A stretch of DNA of 24,393 nt. Source: a virus. Lineage: Duplodnaviria > Heunggongvirae > Uroviricota > Caudoviricetes. Positions within the stretch are counted from its first letter, which is position 1. Each line of letters starts with the position of its first letter. The DNA lies in IMG/VR virus record IMGVR_UViG_2740892232_000011. One strand, 5' to 3'. Positions 4,206 through 22,972 of this stretch are shown in pieces. Position numbers and translations under genes: made by a program. The notes under the pieces were generated by a model. That model saw only the letters and a list, made by a program, of their open reading frames with translations. It made no database searches and was not told the origin of the DNA.

Positions 4206-4727
4206 TTATTCCCGGTAGTTTTCCTCTGTAGGTTATCAACACATCCTGCGCCTCTAAAATTACGGGGCGCTTTTCCGGCGACTGCTCATCCCCTTCACAT
4301 AACCCGGCAGCAACATCCAGGAAGACCTGTCTGATGCTCCTTCTGGCTGCTGCCTCATAAAACTCCAGCGAGGCACCTTCAACACGGTCCAGCGAGATGT
4401 CCAGGTCAAAAATTTCACCGTCAAAGCGTTTTTTGTCCCGTAACGCTAAAGTTACCGTAACTTTATTCTCAAAATTGCGGNNNNNNNNNNTGACTGCTCA
4501 TCCCCTTCACATAACCCTGCAGCAACATCCAGGAAGACCTGTCTGATGCTCCTTCTGGCTGCTGCCTCATAAAACTCCAGCGCGGCACCTTCAACACGGT
4601 CCAGCGAGATGTCCAGGTCTAAAATTTCACCGTCAAAGCGTTTTTTGTCCCGTAACGCTAAAGTTACCGTAACTTTATTCTCAAAATTGCGGATCCCTTT
4701 CACAATCAGTTCATAGTTTTGAGTCAT
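4191..4727 (-). CDS. Small prophage protein between holin and endolysin (YdfR/DUF1327-like by position), interrupted by scaffold gap and duplicated sequence
   Basis: Starts 5 nt after the holin stop; reads MTQNYELIVKGIRNFENKVTVTLALRDKKRFDGEILDLDISLDRVEGAALEFYEAAARRSIRQVFLDVAAGLCEGDEQS up to the N run. The same frame in the left copy continues PEKRPVILEAQDVLITYRGKLPGIITVL to a stop at 4191-4193. True length about 107 aa once the duplicate is collapsed. Family assignment rests on recalled synteny in E. coli Qin (essQ-ydfR-rrrQ). Confidence 0.5.
4279..4698. repeat. Two near-identical ~200-bp copies flanking a 10-N gap (4481-4490): unmerged contig overlap or tandem duplication
   Basis: 4279-4480 and 4491-4698 align with three substitutions and one 1-nt indel (cccgttaacgc vs cccgtaacgc). 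N run marks a scaffold join. Confidence 0.9.
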
Positions 4728-7173: not shown

Positions 7174-7179
7174 GTCCAT

Positions 7180-7885
7180 AAGAAAGCCCCTCCGGAGAGG
7201 GGCTAAAGCCGCGTATCTGTATCATCATGCACATGGTGCCGGGTGCCTCCCGGTGAGTTCAGCCCGGTGCCACTAAACCCGCGTCATTCTCGTTTTGATA
7301 ATCAGAGATTATACCGTCACCAGTCGCCCCTCCGCTCAGGGGGATTCACCATGCGAAATTTTTTTAACAAATGCCCAGTCTGACAGGCAACTGTCAACTT
7401 ACTGAATTGTGAGCAACATAGCATTTAACGGGGAACCTGTTTTCTGCAGTAAAAAGGCCCACCGGAGCGGATGGGCCTGGAAGGATAGCGGTCATGTGAT
7501 GCCGGTTTCCCGGTAACTCAGCACCGGTATCTGAGTCAACGTTTTCTCTACTGGGTCATTTCCGATACGCCCTGCCTGCTGACAGGCTTTCATCACATCT
7601 GAAAATATAGCACCCTGACTGATACTGTAGTACCTAAGGTTCCAGAAACTGTGATGTATCCGGCACAGAAAAGCCCCTCCGGAGAGGGGCTGGAGAGTGG
7701 CGCTATGTGCCATTGCATGGTGCCGGGTGCCTCCCGGTGAATTCAGTACCAGCACCTGAATCCGCGATTATCCCATATACCTACTCGCTGATTGCCCCTC
7801 CGCACAGGGGGATTCACCATGCCAGTTTCTTTTAACAAACTCCCCGCAAACCAGACAACAGTCAACCGCCTGAATTGTGAGACAT
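7180..7885. repeat. Two imperfect direct copies (~7180-7405 and ~7668-7885) of a ~220-bp modular noncoding unit between the tRNA cluster and nanS
   Basis: Shared blocks in the same order: AAAGCCCCTCCGGAGAGGGGCT (22/22), CATGGTGCCGGGTGCCTCCCGGTGA (25/25), GCCCCTCCGC..AGGGGGATTCACCATG, TTTTTAACAAA, CTGAATTGTGAG. Each copy ends (minus-strand sense) with a GC-rich hairpin plus T-rich tail. Confidence 0.75.
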
Positions 7886-15169: not shown

Positions 15170-15856
15170 TCACTCCTTCTCTTCTTTATCGTAGTGGAGT
15201 TGACCAATTTTGATAAGAGGGCGTCCCTGAGATTTGCGGTGTAGATTGGTATCGCGCAGAGAATACACACAGCCACAATATTCCTGCTGATAGAATTTTT
15301 CGCGCTTGCTGATTTCAATCATGCGGGACGAGCCGCCCTGCTTGCGCCAGTTATAATCCCAGTACACCATGCCCGGATAATGCGCGACGGCTCGCCGCCC
15401 ACAGTCGTTAACCTGCTGCATATTTTTCCAGCGTGAAATGCCCAGTGAACTGCTGATCACACTGAAACCATTTTCAGCAGCGTACAGCGCTGTCCGCTCA
15501 AAACGCATGTCAAAACACATGGTACAACGGATCCCCCTCTCGGGCTCCCATTCCATTCCTTTGGCACGTTCAAACCAGTTGTCTGTGTCGTAATCAGCAT
15601 CAATAAATGGCACGCCGTGTTGTTCAGCAAAGCGAATATTCTCATCCTTACGAATTAAATACTCTTTCTGAGGATGAATGTTCGGGTTGTAGAAAAAGAT
15701 GGTATAGTCGATTCCCGAGGCCTGAAGCGCCTCCATCACTTCACCGGAACATGGAGCACAGCAAGAGTGCAGTAGTAGTTTGTTTGCCCCGTTTGGGAGC
15801 TCCAATTTAGGCCGTTTGAAATCAGCAATAGTCATAAATATTTTTATTGGGGTCAT
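15170..15856 (-). CDS. QueH-like protein (DUF208 epoxyqueuosine reductase family), tentative
   Basis: 228 aa with N-terminal [15 protein letters not shown] block, which I recall as the conserved Cys cluster of DUF208/QueH, plus further conserved Cys/His ([17 protein letters not shown]). No clear SD before the first ATG. Confidence 0.5.
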
Positions 15857-16037: not shown

Positions 16038-16436
16038 TCACTGATAAAATGCCAGTATGCGCTGCATAACTTCGCTCTTCCGGCACTCACAGCAAATTAT
16101 GTTTTGGTGCCTGTCATAACGACGTATTTCTCCGTCAGGTAATGACCAGATAAGGTCCGGATCAACCACAGATGTTTTCTTCGCCTTTGCCCTCGAGAGT
16201 TTTTTGCGGGCGTTTTGCCAGTCCTTACGAGCCTGTTCAGACGGGAATAACCCGTAGCCAGAGTTATATACATCACCACTGGCAACCAGCTCTCTGGCGA
16301 GAACGCTCATCAGATATCTTGTCGCACCTGTCTTGGCTTCCAGTTGCCGTAACGTCTCGCGCCCACTCCGGCGTACTAGCTCAACAACCTGCCCCTTGAT
16401 TTTTTCCCGCTCTTCTTGTGTAAAAACTTTTGCCAC
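16038..16436 (-). CDS. Hypothetical basic protein (132 aa)
   Basis: GTG start with AAGGGGGAC RBS; C-terminal CCECRK Cys cluster; helical, Arg/Lys-rich. Lies where the helicase loader (P) sits in lambda but is too small and shows no Walker motifs. Confidence 0.55.
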   Translation of the reverse strand: MAKVFTQEEREKIKGQVVELVRRSGRETLRQLEAKTGATRYLMSVLARELVASGDVYNSGYGLFPSEQARKDWQNARKKLSRAKAKKTSVVDPDLIWSLPDGEIRRYDRHQNIICCECRKSEVMQRILAFYQ

Positions 16437-16476
16437 AAGTCCCCCTTAAAATTACCTCATGACCTGAAATCAAAAC

Positions 16477-17442
16477 TTATCCTCTGAAACCAGGCGGAAT
16501 TTCTGTATCCGGTTCAGAAATATGATTAACACAACGCTGTACAGGTGAACGCCCCAGGCGGATGACCAGTTCGTCCCATTTTTCGCGGAGCTTTGACGGG
16601 CTCATGATGTTTTTTACCCAGAATGGATCCCGCTGTACCCGACCAAACATTTCACAAATTTGTCTGTGGCTTCTGCCATCCAGCATCCGCATTGTGCGCA
16701 CATCATTGGCCCAGACAGTCCAGTTAGGCTCTTTTGGTCGCATGATCTCGCCATCATCACTTGCGGCCTGTTCGTAGAGACCCACGATCCGCCCCCATAT
16801 CCACTGCGCACACGCCAGATCCTCCTGGCTACCCCACTGGCGTTTTTTCGCACTAAACACAACTGCGCCAGGGTGCCGGATTAAAAAATCCTGTTCAGCC
16901 GTCTGCGGGTCCGGTTGCGAAGCTTCCGGACGAAAAGTGTTTTTATTCTCTGTAGTAATCTCTGTTGTATTCTCTGTAGGATCATCGGGCCATTTTGACC
17001 CGATGACATTGGGTCGTTTTGAACCAATGGAGCGTTTCATTTTGACCTCTTCCATCGTGTCATTTTGACCTGATGGAGCGGCGCATTTTGAACCGATGGA
17101 TTCGCTCAATTTGCCATCATCTAAAAGCTCGCTCCCATAGTTAATCGTGTAGAAATTGGTCATATCGCGCTTTGATTTATTGAGCTTTTCACAACGCAAA
17201 AGCCCCAGCGTTTTCAGACTTGCAAACGCGCGCTTTAACGTTGACTCTGACCAGAATGGGAACTGTTCCAGCCATTGTTCCGTTGTGTTGTAAATCCAGC
17301 GAACACCATCACATTCCATGCCGGAATTGGTATCTCTCAACCAGTAATGCAACTGCTGCAACACAATGGCTTCATTTAAGCCAATCTTCATCGCAAGCTG
17401 TGTGTTTATAACCAGTGGGCGTTCAGCAAAAAGAAGGCTCAT
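16477..17442 (-). CDS. Replication initiator (lambda O-like: N-terminal winged-helix DNA-binding domain, iteron-encoding linker, C-terminal domain)
   Basis: Preferred start is ATG at 17440-17442 (track ORF starts at a TTG at 17496). Internal direct repeats in the DNA translate to an SIGSK-repeat linker. Position after the cro/cII-equivalent genes. Confidence 0.65.
   Translation of the reverse strand: MSLLFAERPLVINTQLAMKIGLNEAIVLQQLHYWLRDTNSGMECDGVRWIYNTTEQWLEQFPFWSESTLKRAFASLKTLGLLRCEKLNKSKRDMTNFYTINYGSELLDDGKLSESIGSKCAAPSGQNDTMEEVKMKRSIGSKRPNVIGSKWPDDPTENTTEITTENKNTFRPEASQPDPQTAEQDFLIRHPGAVVFSAKKRQWGSQEDLACAQWIWGRIVGLYEQAASDDGEIMRPKEPNWTVWANDVRTMRMLDGRSHRQICEMFGRVQRDPFWVKNIMSPSKLREKWDELVIRLGRSPVQRCVNHISEPDTEIPPGFRG
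16988..17110. repeat. Iteron array (about 5 direct repeats, ~23-bp period) inside the O-like gene: candidate replication origin
   Basis: Repeats of CATTTTGA(A/C)C-N-GATGGAGCG starting near 16991, 17015, 17038, 17061, 17084, with a weaker copy near 17106. Confidence 0.65.
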
Positions 17443-17944
17443 AATTCCATCCAGCTTTTTGTTGGTATTGCTGTCGATACGCAAGTTTGAAAGCAATTGC
17501 TTTTTCTATAAGTTCGTCAGTTTCACGATCCACTACGGCAGGATCAGCAAAAAGCAGTCCGGACTCCACCACATCGCCATATTCTTTGTTTAACCCGGCG
17601 ATCATGTACGTGATGCTTTTTCCGTCACTAATTTCACGATACAACCTGAAATCATTAATCCGGATAGCCTCCATAATTGCAGGCACTAGCGCCGTGAACT
17701 TTTCACGCTTATCCCTGGTGTCGATAGCCTTCCAGCGTTCGAATATCTTCACTCGATTAACGCCAAGCGCTCGCTGATCAACCGCGCCACCTTCATCTAT
17801 GACACGCTGAACATCGATGTTCGGGCGTTCTTTCAGAGTCCAGAATGCTTCCGTGATTAATATCGTCGCCTGCTCCTGTGTCATTCCTGGTCGGCATACC
17901 CAGGCATCCAGAGCCTCACAAACCTGTTCAGGGGTGATTTTCAT
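17423..17944 (-). CDS. YdaT-like protein (proposed CII-equivalent regulator in Rac/CP-933P-type immunity regions)
   Basis: 173 aa, immediately downstream of the Cro-like gene with 17-nt overlap. Assignment by synteny (racR/ydaS/ydaT-type layout) and size. Confidence 0.5.
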   Translation of the reverse strand: MKITPEQVCEALDAWVCRPGMTQEQATILITEAFWTLKERPNIDVQRVIDEGGAVDQRALGVNRVKIFERWKAIDTRDKREKFTALVPAIMEAIRINDFRLYREISDGKSITYMIAGLNKEYGDVVESGLLFADPAVVDRETDELIEKAIAFKLAYRQQYQQKAGWNYEPSFC

Positions 17945-18155
17945 TGTTCAACCGCCCCGCCCGCTTTGCCTTACGATATTCGTCATAAACTTTGGGGTCG
18001 TACTGAAGTTCCCCGCCGGATGCCTCTTGCAGGCGCATCGCGCGACCTTCAGGAACCAGTTCACCCCATGCAGCAACACTTGCCAGTTTCACTCCTGCGG
18101 CATTGGCAAGCTTTGTTTTGCTGCCAAAAAAAGTAATTGCGTCAACTTTAAGCAT
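17928..18155 (-). CDS. Cro-like HTH regulator (75 aa)
   Basis: ATG with GAGGGGG RBS; divergent from the repressor gene across an operator-containing intergenic region. FFGSKTKLANAAGVKLASVAAW resembles the Cro/YdaS-type HTH pattern. Confidence 0.65.
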   Translation of the reverse strand: MLKVDAITFFGSKTKLANAAGVKLASVAAWGELVPEGRAMRLQEASGGELQYDPKVYDEYRKAKRAGRLNNENHP

Positions 18156-18167
18156 CAAAGCCCCCTC

Positions 18168-18235: not shown

Positions 18236-18643
18236 ATGGATACAAGAACCCTAGGCCAGCGAGTTCTGGCACGACGAAAAGAATTACGCCTAACACAACG
18301 AGAAGCCGCTCGCCTCGCTGGGGTAGCTCACGTCACAATTTCACAATGGGAAAGAGACGAAACCCAACCAGTCGGGAAGCGGTTGTTTGCTTTAGCTGAT
18401 GCGCTGAAGTGCTCGCCTACATGGCTAATGTTTGGTGACGAAGACAAGGCACCAGTGCCAGCACAAGAACTTCATGTGGAAACCGAGTTAACTCCCAGCC
18501 ACAAAGAATTGATCGAATTATTCGATGCTCTTCCATCCTCCGAGCAGGAAGCCTTGCTGTCTGAAATGCGCGCAAGAGTAGAGAATTTCAATAAACTCTT
18601 CGAAGAAATGCTTAAAGCACGTAAAAACAAATCAATAAAATAA
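18236..18643 (+). CDS. Prophage repressor, XRE-family HTH, without S24 peptidase domain
   Basis: 135 aa; HTH LRLTQREAARLAGVAHVTISQWERDE; no Ala-Gly/Ser-Lys autocleavage module. No SD before the ATG, consistent with a leaderless maintenance transcript. Confidence 0.8.
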   Translation: MDTRTLGQRVLARRKELRLTQREAARLAGVAHVTISQWERDETQPVGKRLFALADALKCSPTWLMFGDEDKAPVPAQELHVETELTPSHKELIELFDALPSSEQEALLSEMRARVENFNKLFEEMLKARKNKSIK

Positions 18644-19544: not shown

Positions 19545-19819
19545 AACTGTGGTGATTTTAAGGATACCACCTCGCCTGACGTGGTTAAAAGCAGGCACAC
19601 AACACGAAAGCGCACGGCGAAGTTCGTCTCACTGTACGGTGTCGTTAAATTTAATTCGACCGTGCGCTTCCGGTTGTGGCAACCCGCAAAATGGCGCGGC
19701 GGTAAGTATGGCGGGGTTATTCCTTCCCTGTTGAGGACACCGAGTTGTCAGGTTGACCATACGCTTAAGTGACAACCCCGCTGCAACGCCCTCTGTTATC
19801 AATTTTCTGGTAACGTTTG

Positions 19820-19862
19820 GCGGTATCAGTTTTACTCCGTGACTGCTCTGCCGCCGTTTTTA
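19820..19862 (+). terminator. Candidate intrinsic terminator in the early-left operon
   Basis: GGCGG...CAGT-tttactccgtg-ACTG...CCGCC followed by GTTTTT; compound hairpin. Confidence 0.35.
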
Positions 19863-20500: not shown

Positions 20501-22972
20501 ATGAGTAAAGTCTTTATTTGCGCCGCTATTCCTGACGAACTGGCAACAAGGGAAGAAGGCGCTGTGGCTGTAGCCACAGCCATTGAAGCTGGCGACGAAC
20601 GCCGTGCTCGAGCAAAATTTCACTGGCAATTCCTGGAACATTATCCGGCTGCTCAGGACTGCGCTTATAAATTTATTGTCTGCGAGGATAAACCTGGCAT
20701 ACCCCGCCCTGCCCTCGATTCATGGGATGCTGAATATATGCAGGAAAACCGCTGGGATGAGGAGTCTGCTTCTTTTGTCCCGGTTGAGACTGAATCCGAT
20801 CCGATGAACGTCACTTTTGACAAGCTGGCCCCTGAAGTACAGAACGCTGTCATGGTTAAGTTCGACACATGTGAAAACATCACCGTTGATATGGTTATTA
20901 GCGCACAGGAATTGTTGCAGGAAGACATGGCAACATTCGACGGACATATCGTTGAAGCGTTGATGAAAATGCCAGAAGTTAACGCCATGTATCCGGAGCT
21001 TAAGCTGCATGCCATCGGGTGGGTTAAGCATAAATGTAAGCCTGGTGCCAAATGGCCCGAAATTCAGGCAGAGATGCGCATCTGGAAAAAACGTCGCGAA
21101 GGTGAACGCAAGGAAACCGGAAAATACACGTCTGTTGTTGATCTCGCCCGCGCCAGAGCCAATCAACAGCACACTGAAAATTCAACAGGAAAAATCAGCC
21201 CGGTCATTGCTGCCATTCATCGCGAATACAAGCAGACATGGAAAACACTGGATGACGAACTGGCCTACGCTCTCTGGCCTGGTGATGTGGATGCCGGAAA
21301 CATTGACGGCAGCATCCATCGCTGGGCAAAAAATGAAGTTATCGACAACGACCGCGAAGACTGGAAGCGTATCTCGGCATCAATGCGCAAACAGCCTGAT
21401 GCCCTTCGCTACGACCGCCAGACTATTTTTGGCCTTGTCCGTGAACGTCCGATCGACATTCACAAAGACCCTGTGGCACTGAACAAATACATTACTGAAT
21501 ACCTGACTACAAAGGGCGTGTTTGAAGATGAAGGAACAAATCAGAGCGCAACTGATACTCTCTCGTCGCCAGTACCAGAAACTGATGCAGTGGAAACGGC
21601 AATTCCGGACAACGAAAAAACCGAATGCAAAGTGGAAGTCGAACCATCTGTAGAGCGTGAGGGGCCGTTCTACTTCCTCTTCACCGACAAGGATGGCGAA
21701 AAATACGGTCGCGCAAACAAACTTTCTGGTCTGGATAAGGCGCTGGCTGCCGGGGCTACTGAAATCACGAAAGAAGAATATTTCGCCCGCAAAAACAGTA
21801 CATACTCAGGTTCACAACAAAATACTGGTGCATCTGACACGACCGCACAACCAGAGCCGGTAAAAGTTACCGCTGACGAAGTAAACAAAATTATGCAGGC
21901 AGCCAATATCAGCCAGCCTGACGCCGATAAGTTGCTTGCTGCCTCTCGCGGAGAATTTGTTGCAGGGATTAGCGCCCCGAATGATCCGAAATGGGTTAAG
22001 GGGATCCAGACCCGCGATTCTGTAAACCAGAACCAGCATGAATCGGAACAGAACGACCAGAAAGCGGAACAAAACAGCCCAAATACGCAACAAAACGAAC
22101 CAGAAACGAAACAGCCTGAACCAGTGGCGCAACAGGAAGTGGAAAAAGTCTGCACCGCCTGCGGTCAGACCGGCGGCGGCAATTGCCCTGATTGTGGCGC
22201 GGTGATGGGCGACGCAACATACCAGGAAACATTCGATGAAGAGTATCAGGTTGAAGTTCAGGAAGATGATCCGGAGGAAATGGAAGGCGCTGAACATCCA
22301 CACAAGGAGAACACTGGCGGCAATCAGCATCACGATAGCGATAATGAAACTGGCGAGACGGCAGATCACTCAATTAAGGTGAACGGTCATCAAGAAGTCA
22401 CATCCACCAGCAGGACGTGTGACCATCTAATGATCGACCTTGAAACCATGGGAAAAAATCCTGATGCCCCGATCATCTCAATAGGTGCAATATTTTTCGA
22501 TCCGCAAACCGGAGATATGGGACCGGAATTTAGTAAGACTATCGATCTGGAAACTGCTGGCGGAGTCATTGATCGGGACACCATTAAATGGTGGCTTAAG
22601 CAATCACGCGAAGCGCAATCTGCCATTATGACCGATGAAATCCCGTTAGATGATGCACTGTTACAATTGCGGGAATTTATCGACGAAAACTCCGGTGAAT
22701 TTTTTGTTCAGGTTTGGGGAAATGGAGCCAACTTCGACAACACGATTTTGCGCCGTTCATACGAACGGCAGGGGATCCCCTGCCCGTGGCGTTACTACAA
22801 CGATCGCGATGTACGCACAATCGTTGAGCTGGGGAAAGCCATAGACTTCGATGCCAGAACGGCTATTCCATTCGAAGGTGAGCGCCATAATGCACTTGAT
22901 GACGCCCGTTACCAGGCAAAATACGTTTCAGTTATCTGGCAAAAACTGATCCCGAATCAGGCTGATTTTTAA
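20501..22972 (+). CDS. Large early-left protein (823 aa): unknown N-terminal domain, acidic/Gln-rich linker, zinc ribbon, C-terminal DnaQ-like DEDDh 3'-5' exonuclease domain
   Basis: GAGGT RBS. Exo I MIDLETMG, Exo II GNGANFDNTIL, Exo III HNALDDARYQAKY. Zinc ribbon CTACGQTGGGNCPDCG. Occupies the exo/recE slot of lambdoid early-left operons but no RecT/Bet-like annealase follows. Confidence 0.8.
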   Translation: MSKVFICAAIPDELATREEGAVAVATAIEAGDERRARAKFHWQFLEHYPAAQDCAYKFIVCEDKPGIPRPALDSWDAEYMQENRWDEESASFVPVETESDPMNVTFDKLAPEVQNAVMVKFDTCENITVDMVISAQELLQEDMATFDGHIVEALMKMPEVNAMYPELKLHAIGWVKHKCKPGAKWPEIQAEMRIWKKRREGERKETGKYTSVVDLARARANQQHTENSTGKISPVIAAIHREYKQTWKTLDDELAYALWPGDVDAGNIDGSIHRWAKNEVIDNDREDWKRISASMRKQPDALRYDRQTIFGLVRERPIDIHKDPVALNKYITEYLTTKGVFEDEGTNQSATDTLSSPVPETDAVETAIPDNEKTECKVEVEPSVEREGPFYFLFTDKDGEKYGRANKLSGLDKALAAGATEITKEEYFARKNSTYSGSQQNTGASDTTAQPEPVKVTADEVNKIMQAANISQPDADKLLAASRGEFVAGISAPNDPKWVKGIQTRDSVNQNQHESEQNDQKAEQNSPNTQQNEPETKQPEPVAQQEVEKVCTACGQTGGGNCPDCGAVMGDATYQETFDEEYQVEVQEDDPEEMEGAEHPHKENTGGNQHHDSDNETGETADHSIKVNGHQEVTSTSRTCDHLMIDLETMGKNPDAPIISIGAIFFDPQTGDMGPEFSKTIDLETAGGVIDRDTIKWWLKQSREAQSAIMTDEIPLDDALLQLREFIDENSGEFFVQVWGNGANFDNTILRRSYERQGIPCPWRYYNDRDVRTIVELGKAIDFDARTAIPFEGERHNALDDARYQAKYVSVIWQKLIPNQADF

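Follow-up and report, generated by a model that had tools for sequence, protein, structure and literature searches.

The DNA analysed here, a stretch of 24,393 nucleotides (nt) recorded as IMG/VR virus record IMGVR_UViG_2740892232_000011 and referred to as the window, represents a 24.4-kb portion of a Qin-like lambdoid prophage of Escherichia coli. We report that its O-like replication initiator gene carries, within the coding sequence, an array of direct repeats (iterons), an AT-rich block and a GC-rich inverted repeat, and that the segment that holds them, 16909-17121, very probably corresponds to the replication origin of the prophage. The initiator gene is the third in a leftward row, following the Cro-like and YdaT/CII-like genes (Table 1). 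In RefSeq it is a 966-nt coding sequence (WP_000054487.1, "hypothetical protein") that starts at the ATG at 17442; the TTG at 17496, which opens a longer open reading frame (ORF), is not the annotated start. The protein matches the PHROG 391 profile ("replication initiation O-like") over its full length (3.5e-92; protein 35-339 vs profile 11-298 of 298). A 2.8-kb piece around the origin segment is 100% identical to the chromosome of E. coli strain NCTC9022, where the prophage setting includes dicB, ydfA, hokD, rem, cold-shock genes and an integrase adjoining rspB, and the initiator gene is 97% identical in the isolated phages HannyBb, PhiR42_1 and mEp460_ev081.

Table 1. Features of the replication region (positions are those of the window; iteron and 12-mer sequences are given on the gene strand; aa, amino acids; pLDDT, predicted local distance difference test score from AlphaFold2)
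Feature	Position	Strand	Remarks
DicA-like helix-turn-helix repressor gene	18236-18643	+	divergent from the leftward row
Cro-like gene	17928-18158	-	Pfam P22_Cro 2e-13
YdaT/CII-like gene	17423-17944	-	Pfam YdaT_toxin 1.2e-05; PHROG 163 "CII-like" 2.4e-40
O-like replication initiator gene	16477-17442	-	321 aa from ATG at 17442; PHROG 391 match
N-terminal winged-helix domain, presumed iteron-binding	17122-17442	-	aa 1-107
Iteron IT0	17099-17121	-	GATGATGGCAAATTGAGCGAATC; weakest unit; in 23-bp register with the others; relatives keep GGTCAAAGTGA
Iteron IT1	17076-17098	-	CATCGGTTCAAAATGCGCCGCTC
Iteron IT2	17053-17075	-	CATCAGGTCAAAATGACACGATG; dyad arms 8/10; identical in 7/9 aligned relatives
Iteron IT3	17030-17052	-	GAAGAGGTCAAAATGAAACGCTC
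Iteron IT4	17007-17029	-	CATTGGTTCAAAACGACCCAATG; dyad arms 8/10
Iteron IT5	16983-17005	-	CATCGGGTCAAAATGGCCCGATG; dyad arms 9/10; adjoins AT-rich block
AT-rich block, three tandem 12-mers	16940-16982	-	TACAGAGAATAC / AACAGAGATTAC / TACAGAGAATAA; presumed DNA-unwinding element
GC-rich inverted repeat, GTCCGG-N11-CCGGAC	16909-16931	-	far side of AT-rich block
Helical C-terminal domain, lambda O C-domain homologue	16552-16896	-	aa 183-297; pLDDT >90
Disordered C-terminal tail VQRCVNHISEPDTEIPPGFRG	16480-16542	-	aa 301-321; pLDDT <50; matches DnaT C-terminus
DUF977/Ren-like gene	16038-16436	-	132 aa; Pfam DUF977 5.9e-29; PHROG 142 "Ren-like exclusion protein" 4.3e-44
Epoxyqueuosine reductase QueH gene	15170-15856	-	Pfam 1.9e-65; just past the replication module

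The repeats had been noticed in an earlier note on this DNA, which described about five of them at ~23-bp spacing inside the initiator coding region. The core CATTTTGA starts, on the plus strand, at 16991, 17015 (as the variant CGTTTTGA), 17038, 17061 and 17084, i.e. with spacings of 24, 23, 23 and 23 bp, and Tandem Repeats Finder reports a period of 23 bp across 17017-17100. The 20-nt pattern given in the earlier note has three matches at ≤3 mismatches vs 0.01 expected from shuffled sequences. Moreover, the window has eight TCAAAAYG sites, five of which fall within 94 bp on one strand, while the largest cluster in 500 shuffles was two. The repeats and their positions were thus borne out, with a clustering far beyond that of shuffled DNA, and the count could be refined: the array consists of six abutting 23-bp units (16983-17121) with the dyad-symmetric consensus CATCAGGTCAAAATGACCCGATG in the best units. 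The dyad is clearest in the unit at 16983-17005, where it reads CATCGGGTCA-AAA-TGGCCCGATG on the gene strand; in three units the arms match at 8-9 of 10 positions and in the other three at 5-6 of 10. A consensus over 30 units from five non-redundant relatives, CATCAGGTCAAAATGACCCGATC, is close to the dyad form, and positions A2, CAAA9-12, G15 and T22 vary little or not at all, with a single exception at position 11 and another at position 12.

An AT-rich element near the repeats, which the earlier note had proposed to look for, is present: the 43-bp block that abuts IT5 has a GC content of 30%, the lowest in the gene (0.48 over the whole gene), and is a period-12 repeat. The arms of the inverted repeat beyond it are invariant in all nine aligned relatives (see below), including the gene of a Klebsiella phage that diverges immediately beyond them. 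Together these elements occupy gene nt 322-534 (aa 108-178) and coincide with a segment of the protein that is predicted to be a disordered linker (aa ~110-180, low confidence in the AlphaFold2 model).

Repeats that lie within a gene could be a mere by-product of a low-complexity peptide in this linker and have no function as DNA. Three of the units do encode (S/V)IGSK when read in frame 0, which is the part of the "SIGSK-repeat linker" of the earlier note that stands, and the region does encode a disordered linker. However, the other two cores read EEVKMK and APSGQND (frames 1 and 2), such that the five cores lie in codon frames 0, 0, 1, 2 and 0 and every frame is used for one and the same DNA core; a spacing of 23 bp is not divisible by three. 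We aligned nine genes of the same specificity (from E. coli, HannyBb, mEp460_4F5, a Klebsiella phage, Citrobacter, Salmonella and two metagenomic contigs) and, for six of them, whose flanking domains share only 62-86% nucleotide identity, scored the invariant columns separately for each codon position. The share of invariant third codon positions is 62% for the iteron segment and 100% (14/14) for the 12-mer block, compared to 16% for the N-domain and 10% for the C-domain. Likewise, the nucleotide identity to the window is 83-86% for the iterons and 86-95% for the 12-mers vs 70-80% for the N-domain and 40-69% for the C-domain. The outcome that according to the earlier note would speak against an origin, i.e. 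protein-level repeats with no DNA conservation in relatives, is hence the opposite of what we found. Since one core occurs in three codon frames and third positions are invariant, the constraint on the iterons acts at the DNA level and not on the encoded peptide, and we give next to no credence to the peptide by-product. The region illustrates cleanly how a cis-acting DNA element overrides codon-level evolution within a gene, and the third-codon-position test can serve again for the computational detection of gene-embedded origins.

For the initiator protein a Pfam scan gave no family at E ≤0.01, including Phage_rep_O (PF04492), RepA_N and DnaD_N, while lambda O in the same kind of scan matches Phage_rep_O at 5.8e-36; nothing usable as an identity came from Pfam or NCBIfam beyond a match of 20 residues to the tail of DnaT. 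The AlphaFold2 model, built with an alignment of 24 sequences, is confident for the N-domain (aa ~10-105, pLDDT 75-89), whose predicted fold is the winged-helix one of the iteron-binding RepA_N/DnaD N-domains, and it leaves the tail from aa 299 to 321 disordered. The C-domain is related to that of lambda O (BLASTP, 34% identity, aa 147-294 vs 135-270, E 3e-27); it gave no significant match among solved structures. Relatives from E. coli, Citrobacter, Salmonella and Klebsiella keep the six units at 23-bp spacing and the 12-mers, and in seven relatives the same N-domain pairs with the same iterons. In the Hafnia phage yong2, with an N-domain that is 49% identical, the 23-bp spacing is kept and the unit is changed to CCATTGGGACAAATTGTCC (also given as GGACAAATTGTCC). 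In SfIV and E. coli FORC_043 the N-domains are different ones, of the HTH_36 type, and the iterons measure 15 bp (GTCAAAATCTGACCC and TTGACCCGTC, respectively), while their C-terminal halves are related to that in the window (SfIV, 46% identity; FORC_043, 86% nucleotide identity). Specifically, FORC_043 and the window match at the nucleotide level from gene position 497 onwards, just past the 12-mers, and this mosaic junction together with the covariation indicates that the N-domain and the iterons travel as one module. Among 97 genes with this C-domain, 77 have tandem repeats at gene nt ~300-580, which is a lower bound because the repeat finder misses lambda itself.

The 12-mer block follows several unrelated iteron types. 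In the DnaD-type initiator gene of locus L009, which has repeats of its own (GGGAAACCC) and DnaC-like and DnaB genes downstream, the block is found with 95% identity over 40 nt. The 12-mer ACAGAGAATACA, which encodes TENTTEITTEN-like peptides, is common to initiator genes with unrelated iterons and even to unrelated protein families; its bearers include L009 (2500-2556), L015/L016 and many of the loci surveyed below. This distribution suggests that the 12-mer block is a portable unwinding element, exchanged by recombination separately from the iterons.

Because the iterons, the AT-rich block and the inverted repeat follow the order known from lambda and are under DNA-level constraint, we favour an origin at 16909-17121; the full-length PHROG 391 match and the C-domain homology to lambda O likewise agree with the earlier proposal that iterons within an O-like gene mark a probable origin. 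Early leftward transcription from the cro-like side would, judging from the gene order, cross the initiator gene, and since this gene is the third in the leftward row such transcription would cross the origin, as in lambda. A scan for consensus promoters near the cro-like gene gave nothing informative and did not locate a promoter reading through the origin, and no DnaA boxes with ≤1 mismatch occur in 16400-17600. Initiator dimers would bind the six iterons via the winged-helix domain, as the fold, the dyad symmetry and the covariation suggest, with formation of an O-some-like nucleoprotein complex; IT5, IT4 and IT2, the units nearest to the AT-rich block, are those that match best. In lambdoid origins the iterons closest to the AT-rich tract matter most (PMC7466680, PMC6022878). 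By analogy with lambda, the resulting strain would open the 43-bp block of 12-mers, on whose far side the GC-rich inverted repeat lies.

A cluster of binding sites may also serve regulation, e.g. autorepression, copy control by titration or handcuffing, or exclusion of related phages, or it may be a dead relic in a defective prophage, and in these cases the array would have no role in initiation. Plasmid iterons also serve copy control, which counts in favour of such a role. In NCTC9022, whose prophage is 100% identical, the lysis genes are frameshifted, and lambda-type phages are excluded by plasmids that carry a section of the lambda replication region (PMC3349717). Against this stand the full lambda-type set of elements in lambda order, the DNA-level constraint and the 97% identity of the module in isolated phages; moreover, initiation and regulation are compatible with each other. 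We therefore consider a purely regulatory array or a relic very improbable, compared to an origin that functions in initiation.

How the helicase would be loaded at this origin is the more unusual part. The earlier note had stated that no P- or DnaC-like loader gene follows the initiator gene, and this is the case: the next genes are the DUF977/Ren-like and QueH genes, neither of which gave a loader match, and no homologue of P, DnaC or DnaB was found among all ORFs of the window (P and DnaC-like profiles, DnaB seed). In HannyBb the O-like gene likewise stands between a cII-like and a Ren-like gene, and no loader is annotated within 6 kb downstream. Together with the 97% identity of the gene in the isolated phages, this shows that the loader-less arrangement is not the result of decay. 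In other relatives the next gene is of the YfdN/PerC type, a Dam or MT-A70 methylase gene or rusA. At locus L012 a gene of the DUF977 kind comes after a P gene, which argues that DUF977 is no replacement for P.

The initiator ends in ...SEPDTEIPPGFRG-COOH, as does E. coli DnaT (IPPGFRG), and its C-terminal peptide, VNHISEPDTEIPPGFRG, has a counterpart in DnaT. Using phmmer against PDB sequences, aa 301-321 align to the final 21 residues of DnaT from E. coli (2ru8, 9zbt) and Klebsiella pneumoniae (6aep), with 15 of 21 residues identical and with the aligned segment terminal in both proteins. The NCBIfam DnaT model (NF002770) scores 16.2 bits vs a cut-off of 201 and covers profile positions 160-179 of 179 only. 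Judging from these comparisons the initiator is not a DnaT, and the tail alone appears to be common to both. Loader-less relatives end in IPxGFRG despite differences in the preceding 15 residues (...KYECDTRIPEGFRG, ...DNVDYSQIPAGFRG), and other Qin-like prophages have an identical tail at the end of a DnaD-type "replisome organizer" whose C-domain is unrelated. On the other hand, P0034, a close relative (75% identity) that shares the iterons of the window, terminates in ...SGDWNSADGWEDVL, and a Pfam Phage_lambda_P gene comes next; the C-terminus of lambda O reads ...DLTNTDWIYGVDL.

We surveyed the tails at 97 loci, 80 of them from distinct species and identified with a C-domain profile and 17 studied before. 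A lambda-type tail is present at 45 loci, and in 45/45 an intact P gene lies downstream. The DnaT-type tail is present at 34 loci, none of which has an intact P; four (L019, L023, L024, L025) have a phage DnaC-like gene immediately downstream, 29 have neither and one has insufficient flanking sequence. At locus L034, which has a DnaT-type tail, the single apparent exception, a match to P, is a 73-residue fragment 900 nt downstream and was rejected as an intact P. When the loci are reduced to clusters (90% non-redundant), P follows DnaT-type tails in 0/24 and lambda-type tails in 39/39 (Fisher p = 6e-18, with kinship ignored). The Duganella-type tail (three loci) has a DnaC-like gene downstream. 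A further tail type, seen at 11 loci (L050-L053, L057-L062, L064) from Proteus, Morganella, Sodalis, Acerihabitans and Edwardsiella, is a longer extension of ~60 residues ending ...RQAWNSIWKQ..., i.e. W-N-S-I-W-type, with no P or DnaC-like gene downstream (flank insufficient at three).

Among the surveyed loci DnaT-type tails are confined to enterobacterial genera, all of which should possess DnaT and DnaC. Two contigs with 100% identity to the prophage initiator gene (L020, L021) derive from metagenome-assembled genomes labelled Bacillota and Veillonella parvula; they are almost certainly mis-binned E. coli contigs, and they were excluded here and not used as evidence for host range.

These findings led us to the proposal that the C-terminal half of the initiator would bring in the host replicative helicase, and that its DnaT-type tail would engage the host DnaB-DnaC. 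Such direct recruitment would replace both the tail of lambda O and P. It is quite possible that the tail acts in this way; we propose it because of the partition of tails with loader genes, the dnaT-dnaC synteny and the absence of a phage loader, and it is consistent with the suggestion in the earlier note that a host loader or a different loading mechanism is used. The host genes dnaT and dnaC belong to one operon, and a 2026 structural paper describes the way in which DnaT recruits DnaB/DnaC as unknown (PMC13377028).

Alternatively, the tail could dock on the restart primosome (PriA/PriB) or in the pocket that binds the C-terminus of SSB, and not on DnaB-DnaC, in which case the PriA pathway would load the helicase at the opened origin; we regard this as rather unlikely. 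The SSB tip requires its terminal Phe carboxylate. In the initiator tail, in contrast, Phe precedes Arg-Gly. In favour of such docking, the tail (acidic residues, I-P-P-G-F) is loosely like the SSB tip D-D-D-I-P-F, a PriA binder (PMC4129139). The C-terminal domain of DnaT docks on PriA via a conserved hydrophobic surface and its linker on PriB, and contact between DnaT and DnaC is not shown in the literature (PMC13377028, PMC11087952), which would fit docking on the primosome. However, four initiators with DnaT-type tails stand directly before a phage DnaC-like gene just as the host dnaC follows dnaT (PMC13377028), and this recurrent pairing points to DnaC.

Taken together, an origin with iterons and an unwinding block and with recruitment of the host helicase is a likely, and in our view the best, explanation of the whole, and several observations weigh against it. 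For the origin, the N-domain falls outside the Pfam lambda O family, such that the parallel to lambda O binding builds on fold and architecture, and the dyad symmetry is poor in three of the six units (IT0, IT1 and IT3). For the tail, the DnaT match is limited to 21 residues with marginal E-values (0.006-0.04), profile and fold searches give no link between the C-domain and the DnaT C-terminal domain, and the 2026 preprimosome paper proposes the N-terminal domain of DnaT, not the tail, as the recruiter of DnaB/DnaC (PMC13377028). Moreover, the next gene begins directly beside the tail codons or overlaps them, so that the association of tails with loaders may partly reflect physical linkage, and the survey is uncorrected for kinship. 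A small winged-helix gene (DUF977, YfdN/PerC type) often, and in fact after most initiators with a DnaT-type tail, comes next and may be an unrecognised helper.

These last points would favour that the mutual exclusivity of tail and P reflects nothing but linkage in mosaic exchange, with an unrecognised loader of the DUF977/YfdN type, or the C-domain alone, acting instead. Yet at least eight unrelated kinds of next gene follow these initiators while the ending is of the GFR type in all, mostly IPxGFRG, and the residues preceding it vary. The same tail also occurs on the "replisome organizer" with its unrelated C-domain, DUF977 also follows P at L012, and the motif is common to a cellular protein whose job is delivery of DnaB-DnaC. 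On balance we judge linkage alone to be distinctly unlikely, and recruitment of the host DnaB-DnaC through the tail remains our proposal. Extending it, the seven-residue motif IPxGFRG might tentatively be viewed as a portable handle for DnaB-DnaC (or DnaC) common to DnaT and many enterobacterial phage initiators, whose bearers would need no loader of their own, and also as the missing link for helicase recruitment by PriA-PriB-DnaT.

In a full-text literature search we found no prior description of the terminal motif IPxGFRG/PPGFRG or of its exclusivity with P; matches to "replication protein O" in DnaT papers were false, since the text reads "replication protein of". The loader hypothesis is specific, testable and, as far as we found, undescribed in the literature. 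The initiator C-termini sort perfectly with the loader, the lambda-type tail with P and the DnaT-type tail with a DnaC-type loader or none, and a phage initiator that copies only the last residues of DnaT singles out this peptide for a direct test. If true, the hypothesis would explain the loader-less replication of a very common group of E. coli prophages whose initiator is annotated as a hypothetical protein.

Other features of the window are as follows. QueH occupies an equivalent position in FORC_043 and NCTC9022. The nin-like region (13322-14961, minus strand) carries a Kiwa anti-phage defence pair, i.e. a KwaA-like membrane protein gene (14347-14961) and its partner KwaB (13322-14350, minus strand; Pfam KwaB 3.6e-16); the NCTC9022 prophage, otherwise identical, has hokD and rem at this position, directly after QueH. 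Rfam matches comprise the small RNA (sRNA) DicF (19805-19856, plus strand), the sok antitoxin RNA (12909-13083, minus strand) and two copies of the sRNA STnc100 (7174-7383 and 7661-7851, minus strand), and a tRNA cluster in the late region (7926-8175, minus strand) encodes Arg(tct), Arg(tcg) and Met(cat). A 212-bp unit occurs twice in tandem with 93% identity (4276-4692). An 823-aa "exonuclease" gene (20501-22972, plus strand), which sits where Rac-like prophages have recE, encodes a long low-complexity middle and a C-terminal Rv2179c-like 3'-5' exonuclease domain (Pfam 2.3e-67).

Among known systems, E. coli DnaT (primosomal protein i) resembles the initiator in its last 21 residues, and it acts just before the delivery of DnaB-DnaC, with dnaC after dnaT as a DnaC-like gene follows four of the phage initiators. 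It differs in that its N-domain, linker and three-helix C-domain gave no match to the initiator, and the initiator is predicted to be a sequence-specific origin binder while DnaT belongs to a structure-specific restart complex. A DnaT C-terminal motif on an O-like protein has one earlier mention, for DopC of Cellvibrionales and Oceanospirillales (Brezellec et al. 2017, PMC5509034), which combines an O-like N-terminal helix-turn-helix with a "DnaT C-ter motif" (HHpred, 2ru8); however, DopC is domesticated, chromosomal, paired with the P-like DopE and lacks iterons, whereas we describe a phage gene with iterons and no P. The RepA_N plasmid initiators of Gram-positive bacteria (pSK41/pTZ2162 RepA; PDB 4pta, 4pql, 5kbj) have the same fold of the N-domain, but there is no sequence-family match, the C-domain and host range are others and they belong to plasmids and not phages.

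The closest parallel is with lambda and the Stx phages (933W, P27). In lambdoid origins the iterons and an AT-rich tract lie in the middle of O, and lambda has four iterons where Stx phages have six; the lambda iterons have an 18-bp hyphenated symmetry and the high-AT region is 39 bp (PMC7466680, PMC6022878). As in these phages, the origin described here is situated mid-gene in the linker between the DNA-binding N-domain and the C-domain, and consists of direct repeats with an internal dyad, each a presumed binding site for one initiator dimer; the Stx phages likewise have six units. As in lambda, the AT-rich block (43 bp vs 39 bp) is located transcription-downstream of the iterons, the C-domain is homologous and the gene comes after cro- and cII-like genes. 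The N-domain and iterons move jointly, as in other lambdoid replication-specificity modules. Unlike lambda, the N-domain is not Phage_rep_O, the iterons are abutting 23-bp units with the core GGTCAAAATGAC, the AT-rich block is made of three conserved 12-mers, there is no P gene and the tail is DnaT-type and not ...TDWIYGVDL. The origin is thus a new specificity class of the known lambdoid origin-within-O design and ordinary in kind, and the replication module is a variant in which a lambda-O C-domain is combined with an N-domain of the RepA_N/DnaD-N fold, no P and a DnaT ending.

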